IMG/VR virus record: IMGVR_UViG_3300020465_000009
Location: 6,978 to 70,977 of that record
DNA: 64,000 bases
Strand: one strand, 5' to 3'
Source: a virus
In this document: in pieces, positions 2,174 to 53,506 of the stretch
Layout: every line of letters starts with the position of its first letter
How positions within the stretch are numbered: the first letter of the stretch is position 1
Translations under genes and position numbers: made by a program
The notes under the pieces: model-generated
What the model saw: only the letters and a program-made list of their open reading frames with translations
What the model was told of the DNA's origin: nothing
Database searches by the model: none

Positions 2174-2509
2174 ATGTCCGAAAGAGATCTAGTCAAAGAA
2201 CTCAAAGCACAAATCGTCGACCTCACAGCAGACCGAGACGATGCTCTGGCGAAAGTAAAGTCCAAAGAATCACGTATGAAACAGGTGTTGATTAAATTGG
2301 AACACGCCACGCAGGATGTTCAGGCAACTGGCCACAAAATTGGTGAACAGAACAAAATGATCTCGGAACTTCAGGCCAAACTCAATACCAAGGAAGAGTT
2401 ACTGCAAGAAGCATTAACTAAAATAAAGATGCTCAAAGGACATGATGATTCAACAGAAGAAACAGACCAAGAAGAACCGCAAGAAGAAGACACCGACAGA
2501 GAAGATTAG
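2174..2509 (+). CDS. hypothetical coiled-coil protein with acidic tail
   Basis: 111-aa ORF with heptad-like pattern; late-promoter-like GATAATTA just upstream. Confidence 0.6.
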   Translation: MSERDLVKELKAQIVDLTADRDDALAKVKSKESRMKQVLIKLEHATQDVQATGHKIGEQNKMISELQAKLNTKEELLQEALTKIKMLKGHDDSTEETDQEEPQEEDTDRED

Positions 2510-2987
2510 GACATGGTTGGATGAGTTCGTAACCAAACCAAATCCGGTCTTTGGAAACTTGCCACCTTGCCCTTTCGCTAGGAAGGCCATATTGGACAAC
2601 AAGGTGCATTTCATAGAGATGCCTCCCATAACAACATATTCAACACTGTATCAGTTCATATGCGAAGCGGACTTCGAAGAGATAGACGTGTTGTGCATGA
2701 TCATAGAGCCTGACAGGTTGACTGCAAAAGAGACCGTGGAACTGGCGCATGACCTAAATCAATATTTCATGAGCAAGGACGTGGTTGTGTTGGAGGATCA
2801 TCCCGACATAGATGAACGTGTCAAGGACGTGAGATTGAACAACGGTGAGTACATACTGTTCCTTGTGCAAAGTTTGAGCAAGTTGAACAAGTTCAGCAAG
2901 ATGCTGGAATCAGGCCCCTACTATAAGAACTGGAGCAAAAGTTATCTTAAAGATGTGAAAGGTTTTCGACATCCGAAAACAAAGTAA
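2442..2987 (+). CDS. DUF1415-like protein
   Basis: W...FV..PN..F.NLPPCPFARKA resembles the DUF1415 LCPFA motif; paralogous domain at 53493. Confidence 0.5.
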   Translation: MMIQQKKQTKKNRKKKTPTEKIRTWLDEFVTKPNPVFGNLPPCPFARKAILDNKVHFIEMPPITTYSTLYQFICEADFEEIDVLCMIIEPDRLTAKETVELAHDLNQYFMSKDVVVLEDHPDIDERVKDVRLNNGEYILFLVQSLSKLNKFSKMLESGPYYKNWSKSYLKDVKGFRHPKTK

Positions 2988-3708
2988 GCCTGCTGTCTCT
3001 TCTACACAGTTTCTTGTATAATTTTTTATCGGTGCTCCACTCGGTACCGGTCCACCATTCAAAACCCTTCCATGATGCCTTGTATTCCGAACTCTTCTCG
3101 TAGCCACTGCCCAGGTAGTAGTGTGACACACAGTTCTCCCGTGCCCAAGACAATTCCATGTCCAGTGACAATGCACTTATGGGAATACTGTTGGCGTGGA
3201 TGACGCTCTCAACTCCCTGCAACATGGTTGGATTTTCTTCCTTCGCCTGTGCTGTGAGTATGTCCTCTTGGTACTTGTAGTATTTCTGTTTGGTGAATCC
3301 CACTATGTTGTCCGGACTGTCGATGTAAAATATCAGGAACCTGTCTCGGTCATGGTAAAAACGGAACGGATCGTAGTCCGCGCCAAATTTTTTATCCTTC
3401 ATGTACTGTCTGTATATCTTGGGCAGTCCCAACAGCGACACCATCTCGTTAGCCTCTATCGTTTTCATGCCCAGCGGTTTGCCATTGTGTTCGAACTTGC
3501 GGAACCGCGGTTCGTATTTGCGTAAATCTATTCTAGTGCTACGTGATTGGTACCACACTTCTTTGTTTTTGTAATCGTGGTCCAGTGCCAACCAACCCTG
3601 CTCAACTGCGTCGTCCTCTTCTTCAGGTTGCACGATAGCCATGGGTCGGCATATTACTAAATCTTGATCTTCCTGTTTGCCCAAAACGTGATCGAATATC
3701 AGTTCCAT
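2947..3708 (-). CDS. ATE/Bpt-like aminoacyl-tRNA-protein transferase (GNAT fold)
   Basis: C-terminal ELSWARE....HYYLGSGYEKSSEYKA..KGFEWW resembles the ATE_C YYLG...YK motif; N-terminal GW...WYQSRSTRI. ATG at 3708 preferred over TTG 3714. Confidence 0.55.
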   Translation of the reverse strand: MELIFDHVLGKQEDQDLVICRPMAIVQPEEEDDAVEQGWLALDHDYKNKEVWYQSRSTRIDLRKYEPRFRKFEHNGKPLGMKTIEANEMVSLLGLPKIYRQYMKDKKFGADYDPFRFYHDRDRFLIFYIDSPDNIVGFTKQKYYKYQEDILTAQAKEENPTMLQGVESVIHANSIPISALSLDMELSWARENCVSHYYLGSGYEKSSEYKASWKGFEWWTGTEWSTDKKLYKKLCRRDSRLTLFSDVENLSHL

Positions 3709-3724
3709 ATACAATACTTAAGGT

Positions 3725-4150
3725 CAACTCAAAGATGGCTTACAGCCATCTGAAACATCGCTACGCTCGTTTCCTTTTCTTAATTTACGCATCTGTAAAA
3801 AAACTAAACGCACAATGCGTACTCTTGTAGTAGATGAGCAGTCACAATTCGGCTATTTCTAGCCGAACCGACTTGAACTTGTAGTGAGTTCGCAGTCACC
3901 GTACATCGTTGCCGTAGCCGGGCGGTTGTGCTGTACCCGTTCACTCATTCATCCAACGCGAGTAGATATAACCTTTGTACGATAATTCTATATCTACTTG
4001 GGGTTGCTTTTTCCCAGAGCCCCATCATTTTTGCATTTGCATCAAGGGATTCACCTGTCGCTTGTTAAGCCGCATTTCCCTGCTCACTTTCGAGATGCTA
4101 TGTTTTTGCCTATGAATTTCAGTTTAAGATTGATTTGTGCCTATCGCTGT
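3725..4150 (-). ncRNA. putative large structured non-coding RNA (or structured origin element)
   Basis: No ORF of 60 aa or more in an otherwise gene-dense genome. Many hairpins, e.g. 3733-3751, 3848-3867 (GAAA tetraloop on the minus strand), 3919-3939, 3961-3998, 3999-4024, 4045-4081. Confidence 0.6.
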
Positions 4151-4193
4151 TATATAGTACTATAATGATTAGTACTAAAGGATATTTGAGTTG

Positions 4194-4637
4194 ATGTCAA
4201 TGGAAAATTGGATTTACCAATCTAAAACAATAGAATCACTACCAGAAGACTGTGTTGGATTTGTTTACCAAATTACAAATACAACTAACGGTAGGATGTA
4301 TATTGGTAAAAAACTTGCGAAGTTCAGCAAATCACGTAAACCGTTGAAGGGCAGAGTTAACAAAAGACGTTACAAAATTGAAAGTGATTGGAAGGATTAT
4401 TACGGTTCCAGTGATGCCTTGCACGAAGATATCAATAAACTAGGCAAGGACAAATTCAAAAGAGAGATACTTTATTATTGTAAATCCAAAGCAGAATTAT
4501 CATACGTAGAAGCAAGGGAGCAGTTCGCTAGAAAAGTTTTAGAATCGGAAGATTATTACAATGGTCATATCAGGGTTAGGATACATGGCTCTGGTATTAT
4601 GAGAGAAAAGAAAAGCAAAGGAATTTTAAATGATTAA
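4194..4637 (+). CDS. GIY-YIG endonuclease (Seg/DenA-like)
   Basis: GFVY-QITN-TNGRMYIGKK and YYGSS...F.REIL...ELSYVE...YYNG motifs. Confidence 0.85.
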   Translation: MSMENWIYQSKTIESLPEDCVGFVYQITNTTNGRMYIGKKLAKFSKSRKPLKGRVNKRRYKIESDWKDYYGSSDALHEDINKLGKDKFKREILYYCKSKAELSYVEAREQFARKVLESEDYYNGHIRVRIHGSGIMREKKSKGILND

Positions 4638-5373
4638 AATTTTGAGATTTATAGGCGGGTTCGGCGGCGATAACATTATCAAGATGGCAGTTGATAGTGA
4701 CAGCACATTGTTGTCCAGTGTTAACTTTGAGGGTCTAAAAATAAACGGAGTTCAAAAAGATGACCCAATGCCAAAAGAAAAACGTATGTACGGAATGGAA
4801 CAAGTTTACAATCTATGGGACGAAAAAACAATTGACGTTGAAGCATTGAAAAAAGAGATAGAAAGTCTTAAAGCACAAAATACCAAAATGATTATTAAAA
4901 GTCATTTGTATATTGATGCGTTCGATGACGTAACTGTAGATATTATTCCAACACCAAAAACTTTGTCTTGGGCATTAAGTTGTAATTGGTTGAAAACAAG
5001 CACTAGGTACACACATCCATTGGAATTTCCTATACCAGATCAAGAAGTTAAAGAAAGATTCATTCTTTACCAAACAGCACAGAGGTTGATACAAGTTATG
5101 CGTAATGATAGTGCAACACCTAAAATTTATATAGACGATCTATTCAAAGATTTCAAACAACTGCAAAGTGTTTGTGGCGATGCCGGAATAAAACTTAATA
5201 ATCATTGCGAGAAATGGCACAAGAACTGGCAGGAGAAGAATAGAAAGTATTTGCCTTCGCAAATTTACAAAGATATGTTGGAAGAAGAATCTCCAAACTA
5301 CAATCACATAGATCTATCCAGGATTGAAAAATATACCTTGCTGGCTTTAAAGGGAAGTTTTAAAATTATATAA
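4630..5373 (+). CDS. hypothetical protein
   Basis: 247-aa ORF overlapping the GIY-YIG stop; N-terminal GGFGGD loop; function not recognised. Confidence 0.6.
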   Translation: MIKILRFIGGFGGDNIIKMAVDSDSTLLSSVNFEGLKINGVQKDDPMPKEKRMYGMEQVYNLWDEKTIDVEALKKEIESLKAQNTKMIIKSHLYIDAFDDVTVDIIPTPKTLSWALSCNWLKTSTRYTHPLEFPIPDQEVKERFILYQTAQRLIQVMRNDSATPKIYIDDLFKDFKQLQSVCGDAGIKLNNHCEKWHKNWQEKNRKYLPSQIYKDMLEEESPNYNHIDLSRIEKYTLLALKGSFKII

Positions 5374-18700: not shown

Positions 18701-19232
18701 GAAATCACTTAACGATCAAATTGTTTATCATCCTGTAAAATACAGAATATTATTTGGGCAATATGCTGACGAAAGTTTACAAGCAACATTTAAAGTAGTG
18801 AAAAATCCAGGAACAAACATATCTAATGCTGTTATCAAAACAAGGGTAGTAGCGGCAATAAATGAATATTTTGCTTTGGATAATTGGGATTTTGGAGATA
18901 GTTTTTATTTCACAGAACTAGCCGCATATATTCACCAACAATTGGCACCAGATTTATTGACAGTAGTAATTGTGCCAAATCAGTCAGGACAGACTTTTGG
19001 AAGTTTATTCCAAATATCAAGTGCGACAGACGAAATTTTTATCAGTGGGGCCACCGTTGATGATGTTTCAATTATAAGTGCCTTAGGAGCAAACCAATTA
19101 GTTGCATCAGGCACAGTAGTTACATCTACAGGAACGACATCAAGCACAACAACTACATCAGGATCAGCAGTGTCAGGCTCTACTACATCAGGATCCGGTT
19201 CAAGTACCGGCAGTAGTGGGGCAGGATACTAA
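15744..19232 (+). CDS. gp6: baseplate wedge subunit (T4 gp6-like)
   Basis: DF.SYDFE.LR, LLDL.AY....L.FR.DLN.RENFL.TA.RR.S..LA and ES..SIR..AP....SQNR.VTAEDY motifs. Confidence 0.85.
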   Translation: MATTDRQNRLLVAEDWTKIYQAFQQADFKSYDFETLRRTMVNYLRENYPDDFNDYVESSEYVALLDLIAYIAQALAFRVDLNARENFLATAERRDSILRLARLINYNVKRNQPATGLLKIDTVTTTEDVRDSTGNNLANQTIVWNDSINSNYREQFISIMSAANTTGQTFGKPREAGNIGGIQTDIYTLSSNQTDLPLFKFTKNIGGVSRNFEVVPSAITGSESIFENEPIVGTGLTYAYRQDGAGDSSNNTGFFFLFKQGNISFQDFSIENSTTNLTQPIGAQNINNSDVWLYKLDDLNQISEKWTQVPSLSGNNAIYNSLSKNVRNIYNVITRDGDAIDLAFGDGNFSNIPLGNFRCYYRTSDNEKFSITPSDMQRINLAIPYIDKNGSQQTLTVTASLKQSIYNSTASESNDSIRDKAPQTFYSQNRMVTAEDYQVVPLSASQEIIKVRSVNRTASGVSRQKEILDPTGAYSSLSIFAEDGILYREEKNNTFTFTFKNKNNILDTINSKVEAKLKLPYSRQFYYLKYGTKNLATLSATWNSTTTSTNLNTGYFTTGTGALKTGIYATSNLKYAKAGSLIKFTSPNTNKFLNGKFVASSTDNATDREWAKIGEVEGDGANNGTGNLETGVGPISLTDIIPNGAVLNAVIPAFTINFTTALKNDLIDRVNAYENFALRYDQENEEWKVITSTNVSTSTVFGLGNAGSTTGTNLDQSWWFNFTNDGNTYTVTYRSLDYIFESEKQNKFHYDVEEKIYDYKTGLAVKDTVKLLKTNSLVSTGNSIGYPLQWQIVDTVTEADGYQDNAKVKVGFYDADDDGVVDNPELFDICVEPDTSPTTKFVFFEKYLSYNNIERFRPYAATNFVVAEKEADITLSSATYSNDQLFYFYDQAEDVVKKYNSTTNTLTTTTDYYGRRGRSSLLFQYKHNAGQETRIDPSVSNIIDCYMLERSYDNLYRIWLQDGGTKPTPSTPDQLRISYSGSLNPLKSLNDQIVYHPVKYRILFGQYADESLQATFKVVKNPGTNISNAVIKTRVVAAINEYFALDNWDFGDSFYFTELAAYIHQQLAPDLLTVVIVPNQSGQTFGSLFQISSATDEIFISGATVDDVSIISALGANQLVASGTVVTSTGTTSSTTTTSGSAVSGSTTSGSGSSTGSSGAGY

Positions 19233-22200
19233 TGGCAGATAATCCACTTAACTCAAGAGCAAACCAAGAAGTTGTAAGTCTAGACAACGGAAAAACTACT
19301 TTCAGAAGAAGTATAGCACACCTTCCTGTTGTTTTCCAAACAGATTCTAACCATAGATTTTTATCAAGCACAATAGATCCTTTGATTCAGAAAGGCGCAT
19401 TAGAAAGACTAGATGGATTTATAGGAAAACAAGATGCTAATACAAGAGTAACAAGTGACACTTATATAAGTGCAACAAGCAGAGATAGAATGGCTTATCA
19501 ATTAGAGCCTACTGTAACTTACACAAACAAAGATACAACATCTATAAATCCTGAAGACCAAGTTTTATTTTCAGGCACGTATGATGATTACATTAATCAA
19601 TTAAAATATTTAGGTGGCAAGGTAGACAATCATGATAGATTGCATGACTCCAATGTCTATTCTTGGAATCCGTCCGTAGATTTAGACAAGTTAATTAATT
19701 ACAGAGAATACTATTGGTTACCGATTGGACCAAACAGTATATTAATTGATGACGTTGGACCAAATGCTGTAACTGAAATAAATGTTACTGCTGTTAAAGG
19801 TGCATTTAAATTTAGTACAACAGGTGATTCAGAAAATCCAAACATAAAATTATACAAAGGAAACACTTATAAGTTCAATGTTGATGCAAAAGGTCATTCA
19901 TTCAAAATCATGACCGAACCTTACAAAGAAGGTATTGCAGAAGATGGATCAACATCAGTGATATATTCCACAGGTGTTACAAACCAAGGTGCCGACAACG
20001 GCACAGTAACTTTTACAGTGCCAACAACTGCTCCGGATGTTTTATACTATCAATGCGGAAATCACAGTGCAATGAACGGAATATTTAATGTTGCTAAAGT
20101 TGAAACAAATTCAAAAATTGATGTTGCAAAAGAAATTTTAGGTGCAAAACGTCACCAATTAAGAACACTTGAAATATCAAATGGTATGAGAATAAAGTTT
20201 GGCAACAATGTTACAGATGCAACAGGCTACGCAAACAGAGAATTTTATGTTGAAGGGGTTGGAGAATCAATTACATTAACTCCTGTAGAAGATTTAATTA
20301 CACCTGAGAGTTATGCAACAACAAGCACTATACCATTTGACAGATATATTTTTGATTCTAAACCATATTCAAAAGCATTTTATCTACCAGAGAAACTTGA
20401 TTACATTACAATTAAAAGAGATTCCCCGGACAGAAATGCATGGTCAAGATACAATAGATGGTTTCATAGATCTGTAATTGAAAAATCTGCAGAAGTAAAT
20501 GGATACACACCTAACCTAGACGAAACTAAAAGAGCAAAAAGACCAATTATTGAATTTGACTCAGGTATAGAATTATTTAATCACGGAAAAATTGCCAAAA
20601 AGTCTGTAACTTTATTTGACACAACAACATTAGATGCATTTAGCACTGTAAGTAATTCCGCAGGGTACATTGTAGACGGTGTTGCACTTGCTGACGGTAT
20701 GAGAGTTGTGTTCGCCAAAGACACAGACCCAATAGTAAAAAATAAAATTTATAAAGTTAATTTTGTTCTTGCCTCAGATTCAACAAAGGTTATAAACTTA
20801 ACTGAAGAGTCAGATGCAGTTGCATCACGAGGTGAAAGTGTATTTGTTGAATTTGGTGAAGACAATCAAGGGAAAACATTTTATTTTGATCATGATGCCG
20901 ACAGTGCATTGACTTGGCAAGATTCTCAGGAAAAAACAAAATTAAATCAAAGTCCGCTTTTTAATTTATATGATAATAATCATGTGCTGATAAATGACGC
21001 TCAAACTTATCCAAGTAGTTCGTTTACTGGTTCTAAAATTTTTAGTTTCCAAACATCCGATTCGGCAACAGAAGATACTGTGCTTGGAATGAAAATTAAG
21101 TACAACACAATTAATAATGTTGGAGATATTGTTTTTGATTCCGATCATACAGACGGAACTTTTACATACAGAAACGGAAATTCAACCGAAACAAAAAATT
21201 TAGCAGAAACACATTTACATTATAACAAAAGTTTAACATCTCATGACTCGGTTGGTGCATGGACAAAGAGACCAACAGGAGCCAAACAAAGGGTTATAAG
21301 AACTTACTTTGTAGATGCTACCGAGAAAAAATTATTTCCTATAGATTTTTATAAAAATTCAGTGGACTTAACTGATCTTGAAGTAAGTGTTTTAGTAAAT
21401 GGTAGTAGAAAAAATTTAGATACAGATTATAAAATTGTAGATGGAACAACATTCAAATACATTCAATTTACAAAAGATCAAACAGTTGGCGATAGAATTG
21501 TTATTAAATGTTACAGCAAAGCGGCAAAAGTTTCCGACAAAGGAATTTATGAGGTCCCGGAAAATTTAGAATTCAATGGCTTGAATGAAAAGACAGGATC
21601 TTTTACATATGGACAGATTGTAAGACATACGCAGGATTTATTTGATAAAGCAACGTATGTGACTGGAGTTTTTCCTGGCGCATCGACATTGAGAGATTAT
21701 CCAGAGGCATATAACGCAGGTGGAACAATCATACAACACGAAGGAAGTTTGGTTCCTGCTGTATTCAATTTAATTGACAAAGAAGCAAATTTAATCAATG
21801 CAATGAACTATTGTGCGATTGAATATGAAAAATTTTACAACAGTTTTTTAACTTACACAATGGATTCACCTTACGAGGGTGTAGCCGCGGACAGAGTAGA
21901 TGAAATATTAGGAGCCATTAATCAAGATAGAACAGCATCTTTTCCTTTCTTTTATGACGACATGATAGGACACGGTGAGGCAAAAACTTTGAGAACATTC
22001 ACAGTTGCAGATGCAAATGATACTGATTATGCTATAGATTCACAATTTAGTTCAACTACTTTAAGCAACAGAGCAGTGTACGTTTATGTAAATGATGTTC
22101 AATTGGTATTGGATCATGATTATACGTTTAGTACAACCGATGATACAATTTCTATATCAAAAACACTTGCAGTGGGTGATATCATAAAAATTTATGATTA

Positions 22201-25200
22201 TTCCAATACAACTGGTAGTTTTATTCCACCAACTCCAAGTAAATTAGGAATATATCCAAAAACAAAACCTGAAAAACTTACAGACGACACTTATATTACA
22301 AACACCGATGTAATTGTAAAGCATGATGGTTCAAGGATAAAAGCATATGGTGATTACAGAGATGATTTAATATTAGAACTTGAAAAAAGAATTTACAACA
22401 ATATTAAAGTTTCTTATGACGCAGAAAAATTAGATCCAAACTCTATCATACCTAGCATTTTCCAAACTACAGAATATACTTTAGATGAAGTTAATGATGT
22501 CATAGGAAAAGATTTTTTCACATGGGCAGGCAGAAACAATATTAGATATATCACAAATGATACTTACAGAGAGCCGGAGCCATTTACATATAACTACGCA
22601 TCATCACTAGGAAAAATTGACGGCAAATTTTTACAAGGACATTGGCGAGCAATATACAAATATGTGTATGACACAGATCGTCCTCATACTCACCCATGGG
22701 AAATGATGGGTCATGCTGAAAAACCTAGCGATTGGGAAAGCACTTACGGTTCAGCACCATACACAGCAGGTAACAGTATTCTTTGGGACGCTGTTGCAGG
22801 TATGTCTGGTAGATATGGCAAGTCAGAAATCAAATCTTATCTACCTGTCGACGATCAAGGTAATCTAAAAAATCCAATACAGATTGGACTTGTAAAAGAT
22901 CTGGATCTGTTTATGAGACAAAGGAATTGGAAGTTTGGAGATCATTCACCCGCGGAAACGGCTTGGAGAAGATCAAGTGCGTATCCTTTCAGCATAGTAA
23001 AAATGATGGCGGTGTTGAAACCTGCCAAATTCTTTAGTATCTTTTTAGATAATTCAAGACTCAAAACAAATGTATCGAATAATTTAATTGACAACGACAC
23101 AGGTATTAGACAAACACTTTCAGGCGCAAAATATCATTTAGAAACAATCACAAATACTGCAACAGGTGTTGTTACAAGATATCAAACAGCAGGTTATCAA
23201 CCTTGGATAGTGAACTATCTGATTCATCAAGGATTAGATCCTAAAACTTTTTACTACGATAAAATGAAAAATCTTAAAGTTCAATTAGGATACAAACTAG
23301 GTGGGTTTACAGATAAAGAAAATATCAAGGTAATGCTTGATAGTATATCTCCTGGTTCTTCAGCAGGTTCAAAATTTATACCCGATGAGAACTACAAAGT
23401 TTTATTTAGAACTTCGAACCCGGTAAACACATACCAATATTCAGGTGTGTTGATTGAAAAAAATACTGAACTGTCAGAAGACGGGTCAACACTTGTAGGC
23501 GGTTATAGGGTAATTGGATACAGTGCAGAAAATCCTTATTTTACTTTTTATCAACCTATTAGAGGAGGTATTACAGGTAAAGTTGAAGTTGGGGGTGCTA
23601 GAGCAGAAAAATTTGCTTCATTCCTTCAAGACGCACAGGTTATTCCTTATGGTCATGTGTTTATGGAAATACAGGATGTCGTTGACTTTTTATTTGGTTA
23701 CGGAAAATATTTAGAAGAACAAGGATTTACTTTTGACAAATTTTCTAAAGAAATCGGTGAAGTACAAAATTTTGATACATCAGTAAAAGAATTTTTATAT
23801 TGGACGACACAAAACTGGTCGCATGGATCAGCAATAACTTTATCTCCCGGTGCTGAAAATTTAATGCTTACAACAAAAAATAGTGTTGTTGGAAAATTAC
23901 GAGGACTATCAGGAAACTATTCAGTATTAGATGCAGGCGGTAAGAAATTTGATCCAAGAGATATTTCTGTTAAAAAATTAGGAAATATTTTTGATATGTC
24001 TTCTATTGGCAAGGAAGGTATATTCAATGCTGAGATGTTAAGTGTACAAAAAGAGCATTTAATTTTATTTGATAACAAGACTGTGTTTAGTGACATATTA
24101 TATGATCCAAAAACTGGATTTAGGCAACAAAGACTTAAACTGATAGGATGGAAAACAGGTGAATGGAATGGAGACTTCTCTGCTCCTGGATTTGTTTATG
24201 ATTCTGCAAAAGTAAATTATTGGACAGCGAACCAAGATTATAAAATTGGTGACACAGTAGAATATCAAGGTAAGTTTTATGTAGCGAAAGTTAATCATAC
24301 ATCATCTAGTAATTTTGAAACTGAAAAATTTATATACAAAACAGAAAAACCTGCTCCACAGTTATTGCCTAACTTTGAATACAAAATTTCACAATTTAAA
24401 GATTTTTACAATCTTGAAACCAACAACTTTGACGAAACGCAACAAACTCTTGCACAAAAATTAATCGGATATCAAAGCAGGGATTATTTAGAGAACCTAT
24501 TTGCTAATGATATTTCTCAATACAAATTTTATCAAGGATATATCCGAGAAAAAGGTACCAAAAATGCTATAGATAAACTATTAAAAGCACAGTACCAAAA
24601 CCAAGATATATCTATCGACCTTTATCCGGAATGGATGATAAGAACTGGCGATATAGGAAATTCAGATGCTAAAAAAAGTGTACAGGTTGAATTCACAGCA
24701 TCAGAAAATTGTGGCACAATACAAAGTATAGAACTTTTAGATAACACAGTTGACTCTCCACAATATGCACGTTCTAAGGTTTCTTATCTAGATACCTTGT
24801 ATGATAAACCTATTGATTATACACCATCTAGTACATTTAGTCAGTTAGATTATTCAGGCGTTGGCATAGATAGAGAAACTCAACAATTATTGCCGACTGC
24901 TGGATATCCACAAGTAACACAGGTACAACATTCAGCATTCCATATCAAAGACTTGAAAAATCTTGATGTGAACAATGTGTCTGGAGCGGAATTAATTTGG
25001 GTAGCAAGTAAACACAATCATGACTGGGACGTATTTAGAATAACTGAAGCAGATTTCAGAATTAAAAATATTACACCTATGAACGAAGCAACGCAGTTAA
25101 AAATACAATTTACTGAAGCACATAGTTTACAACAAGCATCAAACACAACAACTGCCGATTATTTTGCGGTGTCCAATAGTAAATCAAATGATTTAAATGC

Positions 25201-28200
25201 TGTTCATCAAGTCAAATCGGTTGAAAGCAAGGATACTATTATAATAGATTACGCAGGAAATACAAATTTTATTCCAACAGTCGCTGACGGATCAACGGCT
25301 GACACATTTGGCAACGTTTACAAATTCATAAGTGTACGTTTGAGTTCAATGGATGCTGTCAATGACAAGTTGTCATTTTTAGAATATAAACCAGAAGACA
25401 CAGTTATAAACAGGGTTGGTGACAAAGTATTTGCCGATGCCGATTCTGAAGGTTTATGGAAAGTATATGAAAAAGTAAATGCTTACACTAGCCAAGTAAC
25501 AAAATCACCTGATGTCATAGACAATCAAGATTACGGTTACAACATTGTTGCCAGAAACGATGGAAGAACAGTGGTAGTTGCGGCTCCTACAAAAGGACAA
25601 GGAACTTTACATTTCTTATTTAGAGCACAATCAGGATCAACATTTAGTTCAAGCACAAATGACGCATTAGGCACAGTGGTAAACGAAGGTGCTGGAAGTA
25701 GTTTCAGTGTACAAAACTCTGCAACTATGACCGACAACAACGATAATACTAGTAAACTTGGTTACTCATTATCGATGAGTACAGATGAAAATTTTGTTGT
25801 TGCAGGTGCACCTTACACGAACACAGTTGATTCAGACGGAAGTACAAGACAAATAGATTCAGGACTTATAAAAGTTTATGTATGGGACACTGCAACTTTC
25901 AAATATTCTTTATTAAACACTATCAATCCTCCAACAGATGGTTCAACTTCAAATGAAAATTTAAATTTTGGTTGGTCGCATAAAATTTCAGAACCTGGAG
26001 ACAGTGTAAGAAGCACTCCAACAAAATACTTGTTTGTAAGTGCACCTGGACATTTGACAGATACGGGTAGAGTTTATGTTTATAAATGGGGAGTAGGCGC
26101 AGACGGATCAACATATGATACATGGACACAAACATCAGTAATTGAAGCACCCGACGGTGGTAGCAACCAAAGATTTGGACATATAGTCCAAGCAAACGAC
26201 AATGGAGATATTATTGCAATATCTTCCAAATCACCCGGCACTGCTGGAAAAGTTGAAATATTTGTAAGACAAGGCCATACAAATGACGGTAGTACATCTG
26301 ATACATTTAATTTGGTGCAAACATTAACAGGAATATCAGCAGACGGATCTTCACTGAACACTGCATTTGGTGAATCAATGACAATGAGTAAGGATGGAAA
26401 AACTTTAGCAATAGGTTCTCCTGGATACGACGATAGTGTTGACGCAGATGCAGGTGCGGTACACATTTACAAATGGAACGCAGACGGTTCCACAAACACT
26501 TACACTTTAGATCAAACAGTGATATCTCCGGAGAAAAAATCAAATCAAAAATTTGGAACATCTTTAGATATTAATGATAGTGCTACAAGAATTATTGTTG
26601 GAGCCGCAGGTGTGTCGAGTGATAAAGAATTAAGGTTAGATTCTGGGTCAACAAGTTTTGACTTGCAGGCAACTACAATTATAGATCAAAACGTTGGATC
26701 TGGTGGTGCTTACACATTAACAAAATACAATACAAAATTTGTCATAGACGAAAGATTGATTACAAGTTCGGTATCTTCGGACGATGATTTTGGAAGAGGA
26801 GTTTGTGTTATAGACCAATCAGTGTTTGTAGGTGCTCCTGAAGATGATGGAAACATAAGCACAGATGGTAGCACTCTTGCTTCTAATGATGGAACTCTAA
26901 CAATATATGATTGCAATGAATTAAACACATATGCCTGGAAGGCAATTACAAGTGAGACGCCTTTAATAGATAAAGATAGAATAGGTGAAGCATTTGTATT
27001 CAATAAAGATTCAAATTCAATAACAGATTATTTAAATTACTACGATCCAGTCAAAGGAAGATTGTTAGGTGTAGCAGAAAGAGAAATTTCATTCAAAACA
27101 TCACTCGATCCTGCAAGGTACAATTATGGCACATCAGATACCAGCAAGATTGCATGGGGTGAAGATCATTTAGGCGAAGTTTGGTGGGATCTAAGCAAAG
27201 TAAAATGGTTATGGTATGAGCAACACACTCAAGAATACAAAGCAAACAACTGGGGTAAACTATTTCCTGGTGCAGAGATACATTGTTATGAATGGGTAGA
27301 ATCAATTTATCCACCTTCTGAATATTTGATACAATCTAGATCAACAGACGGAGTAGCGGCAGGGATAACCGGAATACCTTACAAAACAGATGATTCCGCA
27401 GTAACAATTAAACAAAAATATGATTCTCGAAAAGACGGATTCGTAAATTATTATTATTTCTGGGTTAGAAACAAAAGCAGTCTTCCAACAAAAAGTGTTG
27501 TTAAGAGACGTATACCAGTAACAACGTTAGAATTAACAATTAGCAATCCTTCAACATCAGGAATTCCTTATTTTGGAGTCACAGATAAAAATAAAGTTTT
27601 AGTGTTTAATTGTGAGAATCTTGTTGTGCCTGGTTCTTCTGTCTTTAATTTTGACTTTAGAAATATCAATTTTGATGGAGATTCATATTCTGTTTGGAAA
27701 CTTATAAGAGAAGATGACAAGAACTTTAGTGTAAACAGCACAATTGAAACTAAATGGTGGGATTCGTTATGTGGTGTAAACACAGCAGGTGATAAAGTAC
27801 CTGATCCGGATCTTAGAGAGAATTTAAAATATGGAAACAGACAGAGACCAAGACAAAGTTGGTATAGAGATAGATTTAGTGCATTGAAACAAATAATTGA
27901 TTATGCAAATACTGTTTTAAAAGAAAATGAATTCGCAGGAAGTTTTGATCTAACAAATTTAAATTCTGAGGATCCAGAACCAACACTTGCATCTGGACAA
28001 TATGATACATCTGTAGATACATATGCAGATTTAACTTATATAAACACTGCTGACATATCAGGTGATGCAAATTATCTAGTGAAATCAGATGAGACAGTAC
28101 AAGGACTTTGGTCAGTGTACAAATGGTCTCAGGCTGGAAAAATATTTACTAGAACAGATACACAAACTTACAAGACATCGAGATATTGGTCATATGCAGA

Positions 28201-31200
28201 TTGGTATGCGTCTGGTTTTGATGCAAACACTATAATAGAGAAACAAATTAATTATCAGTATGAATTAGATTCTACAGATGCCAAAATTGATGCCATTGTA
28301 AAAGTTTTACAAGCAGACACAGGCGGTTGGAAATTATTCAAAAAAACTTCTTCTGGATGGACAAACGTTGGTACTGAAAATGGAACTATTCAGTTGAGTA
28401 CAAAACTTTATGATTATACACAAGATGACACAGGATTTGCTGGAGAAGATAGGTTTGATGATAACACTTTTGACCAAGAACCTACAACAGAAACTAGAAA
28501 AATTTTAGAAGCATTAAAAAATGATTTATTCACTGGAGAATTTGCAATTTACTATAACAAATTATTCTTCATAGGACTAAGAACTGTACTCAGCGAACAA
28601 ACATATGTTGATTGGATGTTCAAAACATCATTTGTAAATGCTAAAAACAGTATCAGACAACTTGACCAAAGAAAAAATTACGAAGTTGGAACAGATGCAT
28701 GGGTAGAATCTTACATAAAAGAAGTAAAACCATTTGCAACAAAATTACGAGAATACAAAATTGGTTACAATAAGCAAGAGGACATGGATGGAATATTCAC
28801 AGACTTTGATAATCCTCCTTTTTATGATCCTCTTAATGCAAAAATTAGAAACGTAGATTTAAATGTAGATACTGCAAAACTTTCACTTTACCCATGGAAG
28901 ATGTACAATGATAGTTACAAAAAATATGTAAAATCAATTACAGTGACATCGGGTGGTTCGGGTTATACACACGTACCTACTGTTACAATTATAGGCGGAA
29001 CTACAGGTGCAAGAGGTCCATTCCAATTATTAGGCACTAGCAGTTCGGGAAGTACTTCTGGAACTTATGGATATTTTTATCCATTGTTTACTAGTGAACA
29101 AAATGCAGAAATTTGGGATAGTCAAAATGGTGGCTCCGGAGTTGCACATAGTCATACTTTTGATGAGTATCCTGGAGTTACTTTTTATATGCCTAACAGT
29201 TCAATGAACCATGGTAAAACACAGGCATCATTGTTATATAAAACTTACGAGACTGATGTGTCTCAGGCAAAAGCCACTGCAAAAATTGTAAATGGCAAAG
29301 TAACTTCTATAACGGTTACTGATATTGGTGGAAACTATACTTCAACACCAACAGTTATTATATCAGGTGGTACAGCGACAGGAGTAAATCCATCAGACCA
29401 GGCAAAAGCATACGCATATTTAGAAAATGACTTGGTTAGAGATTTCAATACAACAATTAAATTTGATAGAGTGCTATCAACTTCTAGAGTAAAAGATTGG
29501 ACTGCACTTGCAAGTTACGTTTATGGCGACCTAATTAGATACAACAACGAATTGTATAGAGCAACAAGTGCCTTTACAGCAACATCAGACTTCGATGAAA
29601 ACGAAGATAAAGTCCAAAGGATTTATGGAGACGAAACTGGATTAACTGCATCAGATAGAACTAAAGGTTTCTACACACCCGGTGATGGAATGCCAGGCAA
29701 CGAATTAAATCAATTAATGGACGGAGTTGACTATGGCGGAACAATGGTTACTGGATTATTGTTCAATGAAGGTAAAGGTTGGAACAACTTTAGTTGGGAC
29801 ACAGTTGGTTGGGATAGATTTAACACATCCAACATACAAACTTTCTACGCAGATGGATCAACAGCAACATATACATTCAAAACTGCTCCTGCATCTTCAA
29901 AAGCATATCAAGTTTATGTTTCTGAGAACGACAGCACAAAAAGAAGATTGAGTGATGTGTTTAGAGGCGACGGATCAACTACTGCATTTACATTAAGCAC
30001 TGTGCCAAACGAAGGCGCAATGATCGAATTTATACCATTTGACGAAGATGGAGTTACAACACCTACAGATGACAGAACACTGGATAATGTGATTAGTGGC
30101 GGATTATTTAGAACTGCGTTAGGTACTGCTCCATCTGATATCATATTGGAAGGAGACGAATTTGTTTCTCCAGAAACAAGTTACGCCCCAGAAGAAGCAG
30201 TACCGGGACAAATATTCGACACAGTAGATATAAAAGTTTATACTGCTCCGGAATCAGGTGTGCCATTTATATCAGATACATCAAGCATTGGTGACGGAAA
30301 CACAAAAGTTTTCAAACTTGGTGATTATCCTGGAACACTTGCATCAGTAACTGTCAGTGTCGACGGAGTTATTAAAAGATTAACTACAGATTACACTGTA
30401 AACGTAAAAACTAAAAAAATAATTTTTGGAACAGCACCGGCCAATAATTCTGTTATAGGAATAAAAACTTTTGCAATATCAGGTGAGAACTATAGAGTGT
30501 TAGACACTATTGTTGGTGATGGTAGTACAGCGACTTATACAACAAGCACAAGGGGTGAATTTAATTTAGATTCAACATCTTCTGAGATGTTCGTAACAAT
30601 AGATGGTGTGCCAACAGTTGCATTTACAAGTAGCACAACAGCAAATACAATTACAATAACTTTCAGTTCTGCACCAGCAGTGAATAGTTTAATACAAATA
30701 GCAGGATTCAATAAATCAACAACTTCATCTAGAAGTTACGCAAGTATCAGAAGAGAAGTAATCACTTACGATGGTTCAACCAACGTAATAGGTTTAACAT
30801 ATCCTCCTGGTGCAATAGGACCATACTCAGGACTGACCATGTTAGAGATAGCAGGAAAAATGTTACGTGGTCCGGACAATTCATATTATATGGGAGACGG
30901 TAGCACTTATACATATGGAGTATCGTCTAGTGTTGGCGAAGATTCAACAGTAGATCCTGCAAAAACAATTACAAGTGCAAGTCAAGTACAAGTGTTTGTA
31001 AATGGTGTAGAGAAAAATTTAAACACTCACTATACCGTTGACATTTCAAACCAAAATGTAAACTTTGTTACTGGAAGTGTGCCTACAGCAACAGATGTAA
31101 TTGCAATAAGCACATTAGTTGATAATCATTACACTGCATCAGGCACAGATATTACTTTGAATACAACACAATTAGGTACCGATGGTTTCACAGTCACTTC

Positions 31201-32140
31201 AGGTACGACAATAGTTGCCACAACATTTAACAATGCACTTGGTATGAAATTAAGAAGAGAAGTGCTTGAAGGAAAATCAAATGGAATATTTAAATTAAGA
31301 TTTGAACCTCTTAATTCCAGTTATGCATTTGCTTGGTTAAATGGAGTTCAATTAAATGCAGGAAAAGATTACTTGATAGAAGGAAACACTTTAACTGTGT
31401 ATGGCAAAACAATAGTGTCATCTGACAGATTAGATGTTATGTATTTTGCATTAGAATCAGCAACAGGTTCAACAGGATTTAGAATATTCAAAGATATGCT
31501 TAACAGAACATTTTACAAACGTATATCTAAGAAAAATACTACAACATTGAAAACAAGATTACATATGGAAGACAAAGACTTTAAGGTTGAAGATGAAGGA
31601 GCAGTGCCAGAACCTGATATTGCTTCTAATACACCTGGTGTGGTCTTCATAGACAAAGAAAGAATTGAATACTTTATTAAATCAGGGAACAAAATATCTC
31701 AAATTAGAAGAGGTACCCTTGGAACAGGAATTAAGGACCATAGTTCAGGCGCAGAAGTGGTAGACGCATCTGGAACACAAACTATACCTTATGCTGATAC
31801 TGTGTATACTGACACTTATACTGGTGACGGTAGCACAACAGCATTTACCACAACACAAACCATAACCTCCGCTAGTCAATTAGACATATTCATTGGTGGC
31901 CAACGATTGTTGTTGACTAGCGAGGACGGTTCAACCGTTAATTACACTGCATCTGGAACAACTGTTACTTTAACAGGCACAGCACCAGCATCAGGAGTAC
32001 AAGTTAAAATATTACACAAGAAAGGACAGGTTTGGTACACTGCTTTAGATGGTAATCCAGCAGATGGCAAAGGATTACAAGCATCTACTACGCAACAGGC
32101 TAAATTCATAGCAGGAGAGCCAACAAATTCACCTGAATAA
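19232..32140 (+). CDS. giant baseplate/fibre structural protein (4302 aa)
   Basis: Follows gp6. Contains a cupredoxin-like motif, CBM5/12-like repeats, FG-GAP-like propeller repeats and GDGST-type beta-sandwich repeats. Confidence 0.75.
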   Translation: MADNPLNSRANQEVVSLDNGKTTFRRSIAHLPVVFQTDSNHRFLSSTIDPLIQKGALERLDGFIGKQDANTRVTSDTYISATSRDRMAYQLEPTVTYTNKDTTSINPEDQVLFSGTYDDYINQLKYLGGKVDNHDRLHDSNVYSWNPSVDLDKLINYREYYWLPIGPNSILIDDVGPNAVTEINVTAVKGAFKFSTTGDSENPNIKLYKGNTYKFNVDAKGHSFKIMTEPYKEGIAEDGSTSVIYSTGVTNQGADNGTVTFTVPTTAPDVLYYQCGNHSAMNGIFNVAKVETNSKIDVAKEILGAKRHQLRTLEISNGMRIKFGNNVTDATGYANREFYVEGVGESITLTPVEDLITPESYATTSTIPFDRYIFDSKPYSKAFYLPEKLDYITIKRDSPDRNAWSRYNRWFHRSVIEKSAEVNGYTPNLDETKRAKRPIIEFDSGIELFNHGKIAKKSVTLFDTTTLDAFSTVSNSAGYIVDGVALADGMRVVFAKDTDPIVKNKIYKVNFVLASDSTKVINLTEESDAVASRGESVFVEFGEDNQGKTFYFDHDADSALTWQDSQEKTKLNQSPLFNLYDNNHVLINDAQTYPSSSFTGSKIFSFQTSDSATEDTVLGMKIKYNTINNVGDIVFDSDHTDGTFTYRNGNSTETKNLAETHLHYNKSLTSHDSVGAWTKRPTGAKQRVIRTYFVDATEKKLFPIDFYKNSVDLTDLEVSVLVNGSRKNLDTDYKIVDGTTFKYIQFTKDQTVGDRIVIKCYSKAAKVSDKGIYEVPENLEFNGLNEKTGSFTYGQIVRHTQDLFDKATYVTGVFPGASTLRDYPEAYNAGGTIIQHEGSLVPAVFNLIDKEANLINAMNYCAIEYEKFYNSFLTYTMDSPYEGVAADRVDEILGAINQDRTASFPFFYDDMIGHGEAKTLRTFTVADANDTDYAIDSQFSSTTLSNRAVYVYVNDVQLVLDHDYTFSTTDDTISISKTLAVGDIIKIYDYSNTTGSFIPPTPSKLGIYPKTKPEKLTDDTYITNTDVIVKHDGSRIKAYGDYRDDLILELEKRIYNNIKVSYDAEKLDPNSIIPSIFQTTEYTLDEVNDVIGKDFFTWAGRNNIRYITNDTYREPEPFTYNYASSLGKIDGKFLQGHWRAIYKYVYDTDRPHTHPWEMMGHAEKPSDWESTYGSAPYTAGNSILWDAVAGMSGRYGKSEIKSYLPVDDQGNLKNPIQIGLVKDLDLFMRQRNWKFGDHSPAETAWRRSSAYPFSIVKMMAVLKPAKFFSIFLDNSRLKTNVSNNLIDNDTGIRQTLSGAKYHLETITNTATGVVTRYQTAGYQPWIVNYLIHQGLDPKTFYYDKMKNLKVQLGYKLGGFTDKENIKVMLDSISPGSSAGSKFIPDENYKVLFRTSNPVNTYQYSGVLIEKNTELSEDGSTLVGGYRVIGYSAENPYFTFYQPIRGGITGKVEVGGARAEKFASFLQDAQVIPYGHVFMEIQDVVDFLFGYGKYLEEQGFTFDKFSKEIGEVQNFDTSVKEFLYWTTQNWSHGSAITLSPGAENLMLTTKNSVVGKLRGLSGNYSVLDAGGKKFDPRDISVKKLGNIFDMSSIGKEGIFNAEMLSVQKEHLILFDNKTVFSDILYDPKTGFRQQRLKLIGWKTGEWNGDFSAPGFVYDSAKVNYWTANQDYKIGDTVEYQGKFYVAKVNHTSSSNFETEKFIYKTEKPAPQLLPNFEYKISQFKDFYNLETNNFDETQQTLAQKLIGYQSRDYLENLFANDISQYKFYQGYIREKGTKNAIDKLLKAQYQNQDISIDLYPEWMIRTGDIGNSDAKKSVQVEFTASENCGTIQSIELLDNTVDSPQYARSKVSYLDTLYDKPIDYTPSSTFSQLDYSGVGIDRETQQLLPTAGYPQVTQVQHSAFHIKDLKNLDVNNVSGAELIWVASKHNHDWDVFRITEADFRIKNITPMNEATQLKIQFTEAHSLQQASNTTTADYFAVSNSKSNDLNAVHQVKSVESKDTIIIDYAGNTNFIPTVADGSTADTFGNVYKFISVRLSSMDAVNDKLSFLEYKPEDTVINRVGDKVFADADSEGLWKVYEKVNAYTSQVTKSPDVIDNQDYGYNIVARNDGRTVVVAAPTKGQGTLHFLFRAQSGSTFSSSTNDALGTVVNEGAGSSFSVQNSATMTDNNDNTSKLGYSLSMSTDENFVVAGAPYTNTVDSDGSTRQIDSGLIKVYVWDTATFKYSLLNTINPPTDGSTSNENLNFGWSHKISEPGDSVRSTPTKYLFVSAPGHLTDTGRVYVYKWGVGADGSTYDTWTQTSVIEAPDGGSNQRFGHIVQANDNGDIIAISSKSPGTAGKVEIFVRQGHTNDGSTSDTFNLVQTLTGISADGSSLNTAFGESMTMSKDGKTLAIGSPGYDDSVDADAGAVHIYKWNADGSTNTYTLDQTVISPEKKSNQKFGTSLDINDSATRIIVGAAGVSSDKELRLDSGSTSFDLQATTIIDQNVGSGGAYTLTKYNTKFVIDERLITSSVSSDDDFGRGVCVIDQSVFVGAPEDDGNISTDGSTLASNDGTLTIYDCNELNTYAWKAITSETPLIDKDRIGEAFVFNKDSNSITDYLNYYDPVKGRLLGVAEREISFKTSLDPARYNYGTSDTSKIAWGEDHLGEVWWDLSKVKWLWYEQHTQEYKANNWGKLFPGAEIHCYEWVESIYPPSEYLIQSRSTDGVAAGITGIPYKTDDSAVTIKQKYDSRKDGFVNYYYFWVRNKSSLPTKSVVKRRIPVTTLELTISNPSTSGIPYFGVTDKNKVLVFNCENLVVPGSSVFNFDFRNINFDGDSYSVWKLIREDDKNFSVNSTIETKWWDSLCGVNTAGDKVPDPDLRENLKYGNRQRPRQSWYRDRFSALKQIIDYANTVLKENEFAGSFDLTNLNSEDPEPTLASGQYDTSVDTYADLTYINTADISGDANYLVKSDETVQGLWSVYKWSQAGKIFTRTDTQTYKTSRYWSYADWYASGFDANTIIEKQINYQYELDSTDAKIDAIVKVLQADTGGWKLFKKTSSGWTNVGTENGTIQLSTKLYDYTQDDTGFAGEDRFDDNTFDQEPTTETRKILEALKNDLFTGEFAIYYNKLFFIGLRTVLSEQTYVDWMFKTSFVNAKNSIRQLDQRKNYEVGTDAWVESYIKEVKPFATKLREYKIGYNKQEDMDGIFTDFDNPPFYDPLNAKIRNVDLNVDTAKLSLYPWKMYNDSYKKYVKSITVTSGGSGYTHVPTVTIIGGTTGARGPFQLLGTSSSGSTSGTYGYFYPLFTSEQNAEIWDSQNGGSGVAHSHTFDEYPGVTFYMPNSSMNHGKTQASLLYKTYETDVSQAKATAKIVNGKVTSITVTDIGGNYTSTPTVIISGGTATGVNPSDQAKAYAYLENDLVRDFNTTIKFDRVLSTSRVKDWTALASYVYGDLIRYNNELYRATSAFTATSDFDENEDKVQRIYGDETGLTASDRTKGFYTPGDGMPGNELNQLMDGVDYGGTMVTGLLFNEGKGWNNFSWDTVGWDRFNTSNIQTFYADGSTATYTFKTAPASSKAYQVYVSENDSTKRRLSDVFRGDGSTTAFTLSTVPNEGAMIEFIPFDEDGVTTPTDDRTLDNVISGGLFRTALGTAPSDIILEGDEFVSPETSYAPEEAVPGQIFDTVDIKVYTAPESGVPFISDTSSIGDGNTKVFKLGDYPGTLASVTVSVDGVIKRLTTDYTVNVKTKKIIFGTAPANNSVIGIKTFAISGENYRVLDTIVGDGSTATYTTSTRGEFNLDSTSSEMFVTIDGVPTVAFTSSTTANTITITFSSAPAVNSLIQIAGFNKSTTSSRSYASIRREVITYDGSTNVIGLTYPPGAIGPYSGLTMLEIAGKMLRGPDNSYYMGDGSTYTYGVSSSVGEDSTVDPAKTITSASQVQVFVNGVEKNLNTHYTVDISNQNVNFVTGSVPTATDVIAISTLVDNHYTASGTDITLNTTQLGTDGFTVTSGTTIVATTFNNALGMKLRREVLEGKSNGIFKLRFEPLNSSYAFAWLNGVQLNAGKDYLIEGNTLTVYGKTIVSSDRLDVMYFALESATGSTGFRIFKDMLNRTFYKRISKKNTTTLKTRLHMEDKDFKVEDEGAVPEPDIASNTPGVVFIDKERIEYFIKSGNKISQIRRGTLGTGIKDHSSGAEVVDASGTQTIPYADTVYTDTYTGDGSTTAFTTTQTITSASQLDIFIGGQRLLLTSEDGSTVNYTASGTTVTLTGTAPASGVQVKILHKKGQVWYTALDGNPADGKGLQASTTQQAKFIAGEPTNSPE

Positions 32141-46217: not shown

Positions 46218-46945
46218 TAATTTGTCACGGATGTAGTTTTACAAAATACAAATGGTCAACATGGCCTAATTTTATTAGTTGGTTCAAACCATCTAGTGTG
46301 AAAAATTTCGGATTCAGTGCAAGTGGCAATGAAACTATTGCAAGAGGTGTAGTAAACAGTGTAATGAAATATAAAGATATAGAACATATGTACGTTATGT
46401 GGTCAGGATCTGACAGATATGAAATTGTTCGAGATACTGAAGAGGATTTACAACATGAACTGGCCACGTACTCTAGATTTGATCCGGACTTTGACTGGTG
46501 TGTATGGTTTGGTGGACATCCTGATAGTAAAAAACATGAAGAATATCAAAAACATTTTTTAAATGAAGGACAAAATTGGTTTAGGACACTAGAAAAAATA
46601 TTGTATACCCAAATGTTTTTACAAAAACACAATATAGATTACACAATGATGATTTACAAAGCAGATGTATTAAGACATAAAAATTTATCAAATGCAGAAC
46701 AATCTTTGTACAACCAAATAGATTGGACAAAATTTAAGTTCTACAAAGACAAATTAGGTATGTGGGAATTTGCACATGAACTTTATCCAGACGAATTCGC
46801 CGAAGATAGCGATCAACATCCTTTACCCTTGACACATTACCATTGGGTAAAAGATGTAATTTTTAAAAGTAATGTTGAACCACCAGAGGAAGAATACAAA
46901 AAATTGACACAATGGAAGATCTTGAATATAAAAAACAAATACTAG
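46214..46945 (+). CDS. SGNH/GDSL-like hydrolase or acyltransferase
   Basis: GCSFT block I, SGNE.IAR, MWSG..R, D.HP...H. Confidence 0.55.
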   Translation: MIICHGCSFTKYKWSTWPNFISWFKPSSVKNFGFSASGNETIARGVVNSVMKYKDIEHMYVMWSGSDRYEIVRDTEEDLQHELATYSRFDPDFDWCVWFGGHPDSKKHEEYQKHFLNEGQNWFRTLEKILYTQMFLQKHNIDYTMMIYKADVLRHKNLSNAEQSLYNQIDWTKFKFYKDKLGMWEFAHELYPDEFAEDSDQHPLPLTHYHWVKDVIFKSNVEPPEEEYKKLTQWKILNIKNKY

Positions 46946-53418: not shown

Positions 53419-53506
53419 AACCGTGTACAATTATATAAAAAGCAAGTATTTGCGTTGGAAAAAGTTAAGAGAACAAAAGAAAAAAGATCCTTATGTATAC
53501 AAGTAG
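53411..53506 (+). CDS. basic microprotein (31 aa, DP(Y/F)(V/I)YK C-terminus)
   Basis: MFKTVYNYIKSKYLRWKKLREQKKKDPYVYK; overlaps the upstream stop; paralogue at 54679. Confidence 0.6.
   Translation: MFKTVYNYIKSKYLRWKKLREQKKKDPYVYK

Follow-up and report, generated by a model that had tools for sequence, protein, structure and literature searches.

The window analysed here, a stretch of 64,000 nucleotides (nt) covering positions 6,978 to 70,977 of the IMG/VR virus record IMGVR_UViG_3300020465_000009, is a fragment of an uncultured T4-like phage encoding gp46/gp47-like nuclease subunits, a gp55-like late sigma factor and baseplate genes. The object of this study is the gap at positions 3709-4199, between a minus-strand gene for a protein of 253 amino acids (aa; ATG at 3708) and a plus-strand SegE-like GIY-YIG nuclease gene (ATG at 4200), in which we describe a large folded RNA encoded on the minus strand (whole RNA gene at 3730-4146, about 415 nt). 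As pointed out in an initial annotation of this DNA, the gap is the longest of the window between open reading frames (ORFs) of at least 90 aa (486 nt, the runners-up measuring 343 and 337 nt). It is flanked by replication and recombination genes on one side and by baseplate genes on the other. The best cultured relative of the gp46-like protein is that of the jumbo Pseudomonas phage PA5oct (49.9% identity). Furthermore, the record of the window is rated 15% complete and related records of 96-197 kb are rated 27-55% complete, and these phages are therefore very large.

The RNA family to which the element belongs is represented on well over 100 IMG/VR contigs, which derive from T4-like jumbo phages that are marine and uncultured. 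Indeed, an exact 22-mer from the gap matches 117 loci in IMG/VR, and a second, gapped pattern, taken independently from elsewhere in the element, matches at least 118. Among the matches listed for this second pattern, 111 had enough sequence and 102 proved to be true members, of which 63 carry the 22-mer, 35 a variant in which a C-G pair becomes U-A, and 4 other one- or two-base variants, the remaining 9 being chance matches. The whole element is spanned in 156 loci, which contain 97 distinct sequences, and the RNA is single-copy in all five long records. It is better conserved than the flanking proteins, the 22-mer being invariant and the proteins about 62% identical. This is illustrated by a related locus (L002), where the protein is 68% identical yet the alignment of the gap is far closer and shows compensatory changes in two stems of the initial list. 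Among cultured phages (50,697 records), blastn gave no match to the element or to the 2.5-kb stretch around it, and the syntenic region of PA5oct gave no nhmmer match to the element at E ≤ 100. In a set of prokaryotes with one genome per species, the 22-mer was found in only two short contigs of metagenome-assembled genomes, which are probably binned phage DNA.

The folding of this RNA was deduced from two alignments, one of 80 homologues and one of 88 sequences, the latter made of the window and of 87 sequences kept out of the 97 distinct ones after removal of near-duplicates. The supported model has 15 helices and 80 pairs, and its fold includes a three-way junction, several GNRA loops and a hairpin-loop pseudoknot of 8 base pairs. 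RNAalifold, run on the 80 sequences, gives 58 pairs with compensatory changes in 33 of them, and a scan for stacked covarying columns adds the pseudoknot, which is the second strongest signal in the alignment. In this alignment, 96.2% of the cells are paired as compared with 84.2% in shuffles (none of 500 reaching the observed value), double-sided changes occur at 47 pairs versus 35.2 in shuffles, and the covariation score is 0.396 versus 0.168; when the partners are slid by 1 to 3 columns, pairing falls to 32-38% and the scores do not exceed 0.088. In the 88-sequence set, standard pairs fill 97.3% of the cells and 48 pairs change on both sides. The folding energy of the window sequence is in contrast unexceptional (z = -1.12 on the minus strand, equalled by 12 of 100 shuffles, and z = -2.32 on the plus strand), and the case for a structured RNA is thus comparative, not thermodynamic.

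The alignment also settles the strand. Over the 80 pairs and 88 sequences, 693 cells hold G-U or U-G and 51 hold A-C or C-A, and because G-U far exceeds A-C, the RNA corresponds to the minus strand, in line with what had been proposed. The U-G wobble in one stem (P8, see below), which had been put forward as an argument for this strand, is lost in three variant sequences. The same data bear on a different possibility, namely that the conservation operates at the level of DNA, as in a replication origin, a packaging site or a homing-endonuclease target. The position of the site between replication/recombination and baseplate genes and beside a homing-type nuclease would suit such a role, as would the invariant 22-bp core and the slightly better folding of the opposite strand when taken alone. 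Yet compensatory changes keep 47-48 pairs, the hairpin-loop pseudoknot covaries, and an excess of G-U over A-C is sensible only if one strand is read as RNA, which makes a DNA-level explanation highly improbable.

From the 5' end, all coordinates being on the minus strand, the RNA begins with a first repeat, AUAGGCA (4138-4144), which is conserved in the family, followed by a second one, CAUAGGCA (4107-4114), whose AGGC is invariant in the 80 sequences and whose UAG is paired by RNAalifold with a CUG further downstream in the RNA (in repeat B, described below), a pairing for which no covariation is possible. The P2-P3-P4 domain (4039-4098) comprises P2 (4098-4094/4043-4039; 99.3% paired, three pairs with double changes), P3 (4081-4077/4049-4045; 96.6% paired, four such pairs) and a variable P4 hairpin at about 4070-4060, with conserved internal loops; P4 was drawn by eye and its alignment is poor (62% paired). 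It is followed by P5 (3999-4024), made of an outer helix (4024-4020/4003-3999; 99.1% paired) and an inner P5a (4016-4015/4006-4005; 100% paired), in which one pair is GC in 41 sequences and UA in 39. P6, a long variable hairpin (3961-3998), has 11 pairs (3998-3988/3971-3961; 96.8% paired, nine with double changes) and a loop at 3983-3976, AUCGUACA, that forms the pseudoknot with UGUACGGU (3898-3905), located 70 nt away. The 8 pairs of this pseudoknot are 98.4-98.6% paired, six of them with double changes, as compared with 16-46% paired in slid controls. Between its two strands lies the three-way junction (3907-3958) of P7 (3958-3955/3910-3907), P8 (3939-3935/3923-3919, with an 11-nt loop) and P9, a tetraloop mini-hairpin (3918-3911). 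P7 is 98.9% paired with one-sided changes only, and P9 is 100% paired with both pairs covarying. P8 is invariant in the 80 sequences, which were found by its own 22-mer; among the matches listed for the independent pattern, the change from C-G to U-A at its base accounts for the 35 variant loci out of 111 mentioned above.

The 3' part of the molecule contains P10, a hairpin with a GAAA tetraloop (3845-3870; 11 pairs, 99.5% paired, five with double changes), and a terminator-like hairpin T with a U run (3797-3820, the hairpin itself at 3820-3808) that was picked up by a terminator scan, is 81-86% paired and is optional, being missing in 5 of the 80 homologues. It ends with P11, which encloses a GUA(A) mini-hairpin, P11a (3752-3773; five pairs, 98.6% paired, all five with double changes), and with P12 followed by UUU (3730-3751, hairpin at 3751-3733; 92.8% paired, four pairs with double changes), likely the 3' terminator. 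The weaker parts of the model are T, P12 (85% paired in the 80-homologue alignment), P4 and P7, for the reasons given with each. The six stems listed in the initial annotation all exist where it had placed them and are supported in relatives: those at 3733-51, 3848-67, 3919-39, 3961-98, 3999-4024 and 4045-81 are P12, the inner part of P10 with its GAAA loop, P8, P6, P5 and P3, respectively. P2, P7, P9, P11, the pseudoknot and the twin repeats described below are additional to that list. Two further candidates, a GGUGA/UCACC hairpin and a P1-type pairing of the 5' end with the segment following P10, were discarded, as they are without covariation or clash with P10 and the pseudoknot.

The RNA displays two formally single-stranded repeats of about 20 nt, repeat A (GACUGCGAACUCACUACAAG, 3878-3897, minus strand) and repeat B (UGACUGCUCAUCUACUACAAG, 3824-3844, minus strand), which share a common pattern consisting of GACUGC, four bases, CU, a variable triplet and ACA. 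In each of the 110 loci examined, A and B of one RNA carry the same variable bases, which nevertheless change from lineage to lineage, the triplet being ACC, GCC, AGC, AGU or ACU, with longer variants as well. This co-variation is an identity in the same sense and not a base pairing. If a G-A mismatch is allowed, the UGACU of A and B could also pair with the two AGGCA motifs of the 5' region, a pairing that lies beyond the covariation test because the bases involved are all invariant. A search of the flanks for a conserved 8-mer complementary to A or B found none, the best occurring in 12 of 48 loci, and TGACTGC is not enriched in the window (10 occurrences versus 6.6 expected).

Scrutiny of known RNA families gave no identity for this element. 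With Rfam 15 (4227 models), no match reaches the gathering threshold in the 64-kb window, and at E ≤ 10 the sole match in 3500-4400 is CRISPR-DR6 at 4369-4384, outside the element. In six divergent loci of the family, three weak matches were obtained at E ≤ 1, none of them in the element. Besides, at about 1 kb from the RNA, one locus shows a preQ1-II riboswitch-like match of low score (L019:2721-2825, minus strand; 34.3 bits versus a gathering threshold of 47, E 0.011). ARAGORN finds no tRNA or transfer-messenger RNA gene in the window, and neither the group I intron core model (E ≤ 10) nor the GOLLD/ROOL, T-box and riboswitch models of Rfam match the element. The possibility that the P8 loop and one internal loop resemble conserved regions of RNase P RNA was rejected, as the words concerned are absent from two real RNase P RNAs and only chance words of 6-12 nt (E ≥ 3) are shared; a resemblance of the P8 loop to 16S rRNA was dropped, since it amounts to an 8-nt word of which about nine are expected by chance at these RNA sizes. 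The initial annotation, which could not match the element to a tRNA, a transfer-messenger RNA, an RNase P RNA or a group I intron core, is thus upheld. Nor is there a conserved reading frame in the element: over the 88 sequences, the longest stop-free stretch is spread over the six strands and frames (39, 28, 9, 7, 4 and 1 sequences), and the variability is devoid of a three-base period.

A degenerate or atypical known ribozyme, for instance an RNase P-like RNA or what is left of a group I intron associated with the GIY-YIG gene, must nevertheless be weighed at this point. Group I introns with GIY-YIG endonucleases occur in T4-type phages, T4 also has free-standing Seg endonucleases, and a homing nuclease beside a very conserved sequence is a typical arrangement. 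The present RNA likewise has a pseudoknot and GNRA loops and stands next to a SegE-type GIY-YIG gene in a T4-like phage. However, it is devoid of exons, since it is preceded by a promoter-like site and an opposite-strand gene and followed by an intact gene start or by convergent genes. The one pseudoknot that is supported links the loop of a hairpin with a strand further downstream, which seems to set it apart from the P3-P7 pseudoknot, with its guanosine-binding site, of group I introns. Moreover, the nuclease gene lies outside the RNA and is read from the opposite strand, and it is not sporadic but conserved and single-copy. Together with the chance-level likeness to RNase P and the want of any Rfam model on the element even at E 10, these differences make a disguised known ribozyme extremely improbable.

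Concerning the extent of the transcript, conservation among relatives spans the segment from about 4145 to 3730. The putative 5' end of the RNA was placed from a promoter-like site and its putative 3' end from P12 and the U run. In the window, a -10-like hexamer, TATATA (4152-4157, minus strand), lies 9-11 nt ahead of the first GGC of the RNA. Within the family, the pattern TTGNNN-N15-18-TA(T/A)A(A/T)(A/T) is found in 40 of 60 distinct upstream sequences, with 9-11 nt from the end of the hexamer to the first conserved GGC, and its -10-like part is visible by eye in all 60. At the other end, the P12 hairpin is present in 74 of 81 distinct tails. There is perhaps a second RNA form of about 350 nt, ending at 3797. 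The element is covered by contigs from four marine metatranscriptome runs belonging to two studies, and three of these contigs are identical pieces, over 3633-4117, 3968-4199 and 3947-4111; the positions at which contigs stop vary, being 4117 and 4111 in one study and 4199 in the other. These contigs lend weak support to expression of the element. One contig of run X2 omits 62 bases within 3854-3917, from the P9 loop to the P10 loop, at low depth and with a short side of 25 nt, and it may be the sequence of a relative or an assembly error.

Neighbouring genes were counted over 99 distinct loci, the upstream slot requiring a flank of at least 720 nt (64 loci) and the downstream slot at least 1000 nt (56 loci). 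The divergent upstream neighbour in the window is the SegE-like GIY-YIG gene (4200-4637, plus strand; PF19835, 129.6 bits versus a cut-off of 25, E 9.5e-38). Of the 64 loci, 52 have a SegE-like gene in this slot, 4 have a gene distantly homologous to the 253-aa gene, and 8 have other genes. The last group includes genes for a radical SAM protein, for an amidinotransferase-like protein, which ends in a GGxHC motif of that type, and for several unknowns (L061, L070, L027, L072, L011, L060). The slot has the look of a hyperplastic region. In the window, the SegE-like stop is overlapped by the start of a 247-aa ORF (4630-5370, plus strand), which among the loci examined recurs only in L002, at 54% identity. 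This ORF matches no family.

The adjacency of the nuclease raises the possibility that the RNA guides or inhibits it or is its cofactor, specificity being conferred by A and B. The two genes are close companions: besides the 52 loci with a divergent SegE-like neighbour, each of the five long records has one PF19835 match above the cut-off and one copy of the RNA, 60 nt to 2.8 kb apart. The SegE-like protein (146-148 aa) is barely larger than its catalytic domain of 123 positions, and A and B resemble a programmable sequence in being variable between lineages and identical within an RNA. Against this, all loci represent one syntenic region, and the adjacencies between the RNA and its neighbours are therefore not independent evidence of a functional tie. 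Furthermore, 12 of 64 loci have a different gene in the slot, 4 of which carry the most divergent RNAs, and no match or complement to A or B was found in the flanks. Free-standing homing endonucleases usually adjoin very conserved targets, and since homing genes settle beside such sequences, the adjacency is explained without any partnership. A dedicated RNA partner of the nuclease is accordingly very doubtful. The initial proposal was that of an uncharacterised structured minus-strand RNA, possibly working with the GIY-YIG nuclease or a transferase; the RNA itself is supported, and the partnership remains a conjecture.

Directly downstream, on the strand of the RNA, lies the 253-aa gene (2947-3708, minus strand), which is optional in the family. 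The initial annotation had described a gp51-like gene at this side of the gap, an assignment that is not retained, as the protein is predicted to have a GNAT fold. It belongs to no Pfam, NCBIfam or PHROG family and has no tblastn match in cultured phages, while at least 407 homologues are found in marine metagenomes. For its AlphaFold model, which is of intermediate confidence (mean predicted local distance difference test score of 68.7), the best Foldseek match is human ATE1 (E 2e-4), and VIA-align superposes 132 residues on an MprF-type domain with Z 10.5 and 206 on ATE1 with Z 9.6. As a lead at the level of fold only, the modelled protein is nearest to GNAT-fold aminoacyl-tRNA-dependent transferases (MprF C-domain, ATE1, FemX-like); if true, an aminoacyl-tRNA-dependent GNAT-type transferase would be an unusual enzyme for a phage.

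Such a neighbour invites the view that the RNA is a cis-acting 5' leader, i.e., a large riboswitch or a tRNA- or metabolite-sensing attenuator that would control the 253-aa gene through the T and P12 hairpins. In 39 of 56 loci the downstream slot is occupied by the 253-aa gene, on the same strand. Conversely, 170 relatives were retrieved for this gene and the best 80 examined, 68 of them with at least 450 nt upstream; the RNA is immediately adjacent in 58 of these 68, lies farther upstream in 7 and is missing within 1.5 kb in 3. The transcript contains a terminator-like hairpin with a U run, beyond which UGCGU words recur, and the modelled fold of the protein would make tRNA-sensing conceivable. 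The RNA thereby recalls riboswitches and T-boxes, which it resembles by its same-strand downstream gene in most loci, its internal terminator-like hairpin and its pseudoknot. However, in the other 17 of the 56 loci convergent baseplate-side genes follow directly and the RNA is kept without any downstream gene on its strand, from which it appears to be more than a leader. In addition, the distant 253-aa homologue stands upstream on the opposite strand in 4 loci, hairpin T is missing in 5 of 80 homologues although the gene is present, the RNA is far better conserved than the protein, as stated above, and it is far larger than most aptamers and has no match to T-box or riboswitch models. A leader function is for these reasons unlikely, without being negligible.

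Several features of the surroundings are worth mentioning in their own right. The 181-aa gene beside the 253-aa gene (2442-2984, plus strand) matches phrog_28122, which also matches the N-terminus of a distant 397-aa methyltransferase-like protein (53493-54683, plus strand). The 181-aa and 253-aa genes travel together, and are inverted together in L004, L007, L042 and L074. The G+C content is 44-47% at 2550-4050, a segment covering the 181-aa gene, the 253-aa gene and the RNA, versus 30-39% in the surroundings, which may reflect a module of different origin or just the composition of the RNA and its neighbours. Farther away, a single ORF of about 4300 codons (19232-32137, plus strand) lies amid baseplate and tail genes. 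Four clustered genes for radical-SAM-like proteins are followed by carbamoyltransferase, nucleotide-sugar epimerase and aminotransferase genes (45075-52610 and 56859-60263, plus strand), a cluster that looks like a modification or biosynthesis island. At the end of the window, an HNH endonuclease gene (63028-63999, minus strand; phrog_1314, E 1.9e-84) encodes a second homing-type nuclease of the phage.

Taken together, these data lead us to propose that the element is a free-standing, folded minus-strand RNA of a new family, forming its own unit and acting in trans with A and B as twin recognition sites, an interpretation to which we assign a probability of roughly 0.6. Most of this figure rests on the parts documented above, i.e., that the RNA is conserved, folded, read from the minus strand, present once per record and independent of any one neighbour. 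The trans-acting step taken alone is something that we only infer, and it has rather less than an even chance of being right. According to this proposal, a sigma70-like promoter of its own would drive the RNA, whose transcription would end at the P12 hairpin and U run, with read-through serving the 253-aa gene where present. The RNA would then act in trans as a folded molecule, either as a ribonucleoprotein scaffold or in a ribozyme-like manner, rather than as a cis-regulator, and A and B would be twin recognition sites for one partner, which could be a protein dimer or a nucleic acid.

Several observations weigh against this proposal. No pairing partner for A or B was found inside the RNA, within 1500 nt on either side of it in 110 loci, or in the window, including the sense strand of the window genes. 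The promoter-like site of the window itself lacks a well-spaced -35, and only 37 of the 74 tails with a P12 hairpin have at least three T within the next 5 nt, so that a clear U run exists in half of them. Between the RNA and the 253-aa gene no promoter was seen which, with 58 of 68 homologues abutting the RNA, fits a leader role too. As for expression, the metatranscriptome contigs show that the element is covered, yet they carry neither strand, level nor RNA ends; because they are strandless and the flanking genes are covered too in run X1, DNA carry-over is possible.

A bolder form of the proposal holds that this is a new large class of phage ribozyme or ribonucleoprotein in which A and B are programmable elements, for instance guides for the adjacent single-copy GIY-YIG nuclease. 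This is quite improbable. We know of no RNA-guided GIY-YIG enzyme, and if A and B did guide the nuclease, it would be the first RNA-directed one.

The closest known counterparts in general appearance are GOLLD and ROOL, which are described as large ornate RNAs often found in phages and prophages (10.1101/2024.12.08.627333). The present RNA resembles them in being large, phage-borne, non-coding and multi-helical, with pseudoknots, GNRA loops and conserved unpaired nucleotides. It differs from them in being shorter (about 415 nt), in occurring in marine T4-like jumbo phages, in matching no Rfam model, and in not being located beside tRNA genes, none of which ARAGORN detects in the 64 kb. A further comparison concerns the template RNAs of DRT2-type defence reverse transcriptases, in which short repeats let the nascent copy jump back, something that would in principle be possible with A and B. 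In such templates, as here, direct repeats flank a short structured segment (10.64898/2026.09.22.753630). By contrast, the 20-nt repeats lie here inside a much larger fold, and the idea of a reverse-transcriptase template was abandoned, there being no RVT_1 match in the five long records (27-55% complete) and none among the ORFs of the window, a result that, with records so incomplete, falls short of proving absence.

Fremin et al. 2023 (PMC10690425) also worked from IMG/VR and likewise relied on covariation in phage intergenic regions; their structured RNA candidates measure 29-151 nt. Because those candidates are at most 151 nt long, their catalogue can hold at most pieces of the present RNA, and fragments of it may be listed there unnamed. 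The 22-mer is absent from six supplementary files of that article, a search that did not extend to files 1, 2 and 4, among them the alignment files. A search of the full-text literature, which did not cover these alignment files, found no published description of the RNA. The family is categorically new in that it matches no known RNA family or system, and this novelty concerns the family and its architecture, not a mechanism.

Few classes of large, intricately folded RNAs are known in bacteria and phages, and each of them has either opened new biochemistry or stays a puzzle. The RNA described here is abundant in marine viromes and shows rich covariation that extends to a pseudoknot, and it thereby offers a defined and alignable target for structure determination and for binding and cleavage assays. 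Its existence raises the question of what need giant marine phages have for such an RNA.

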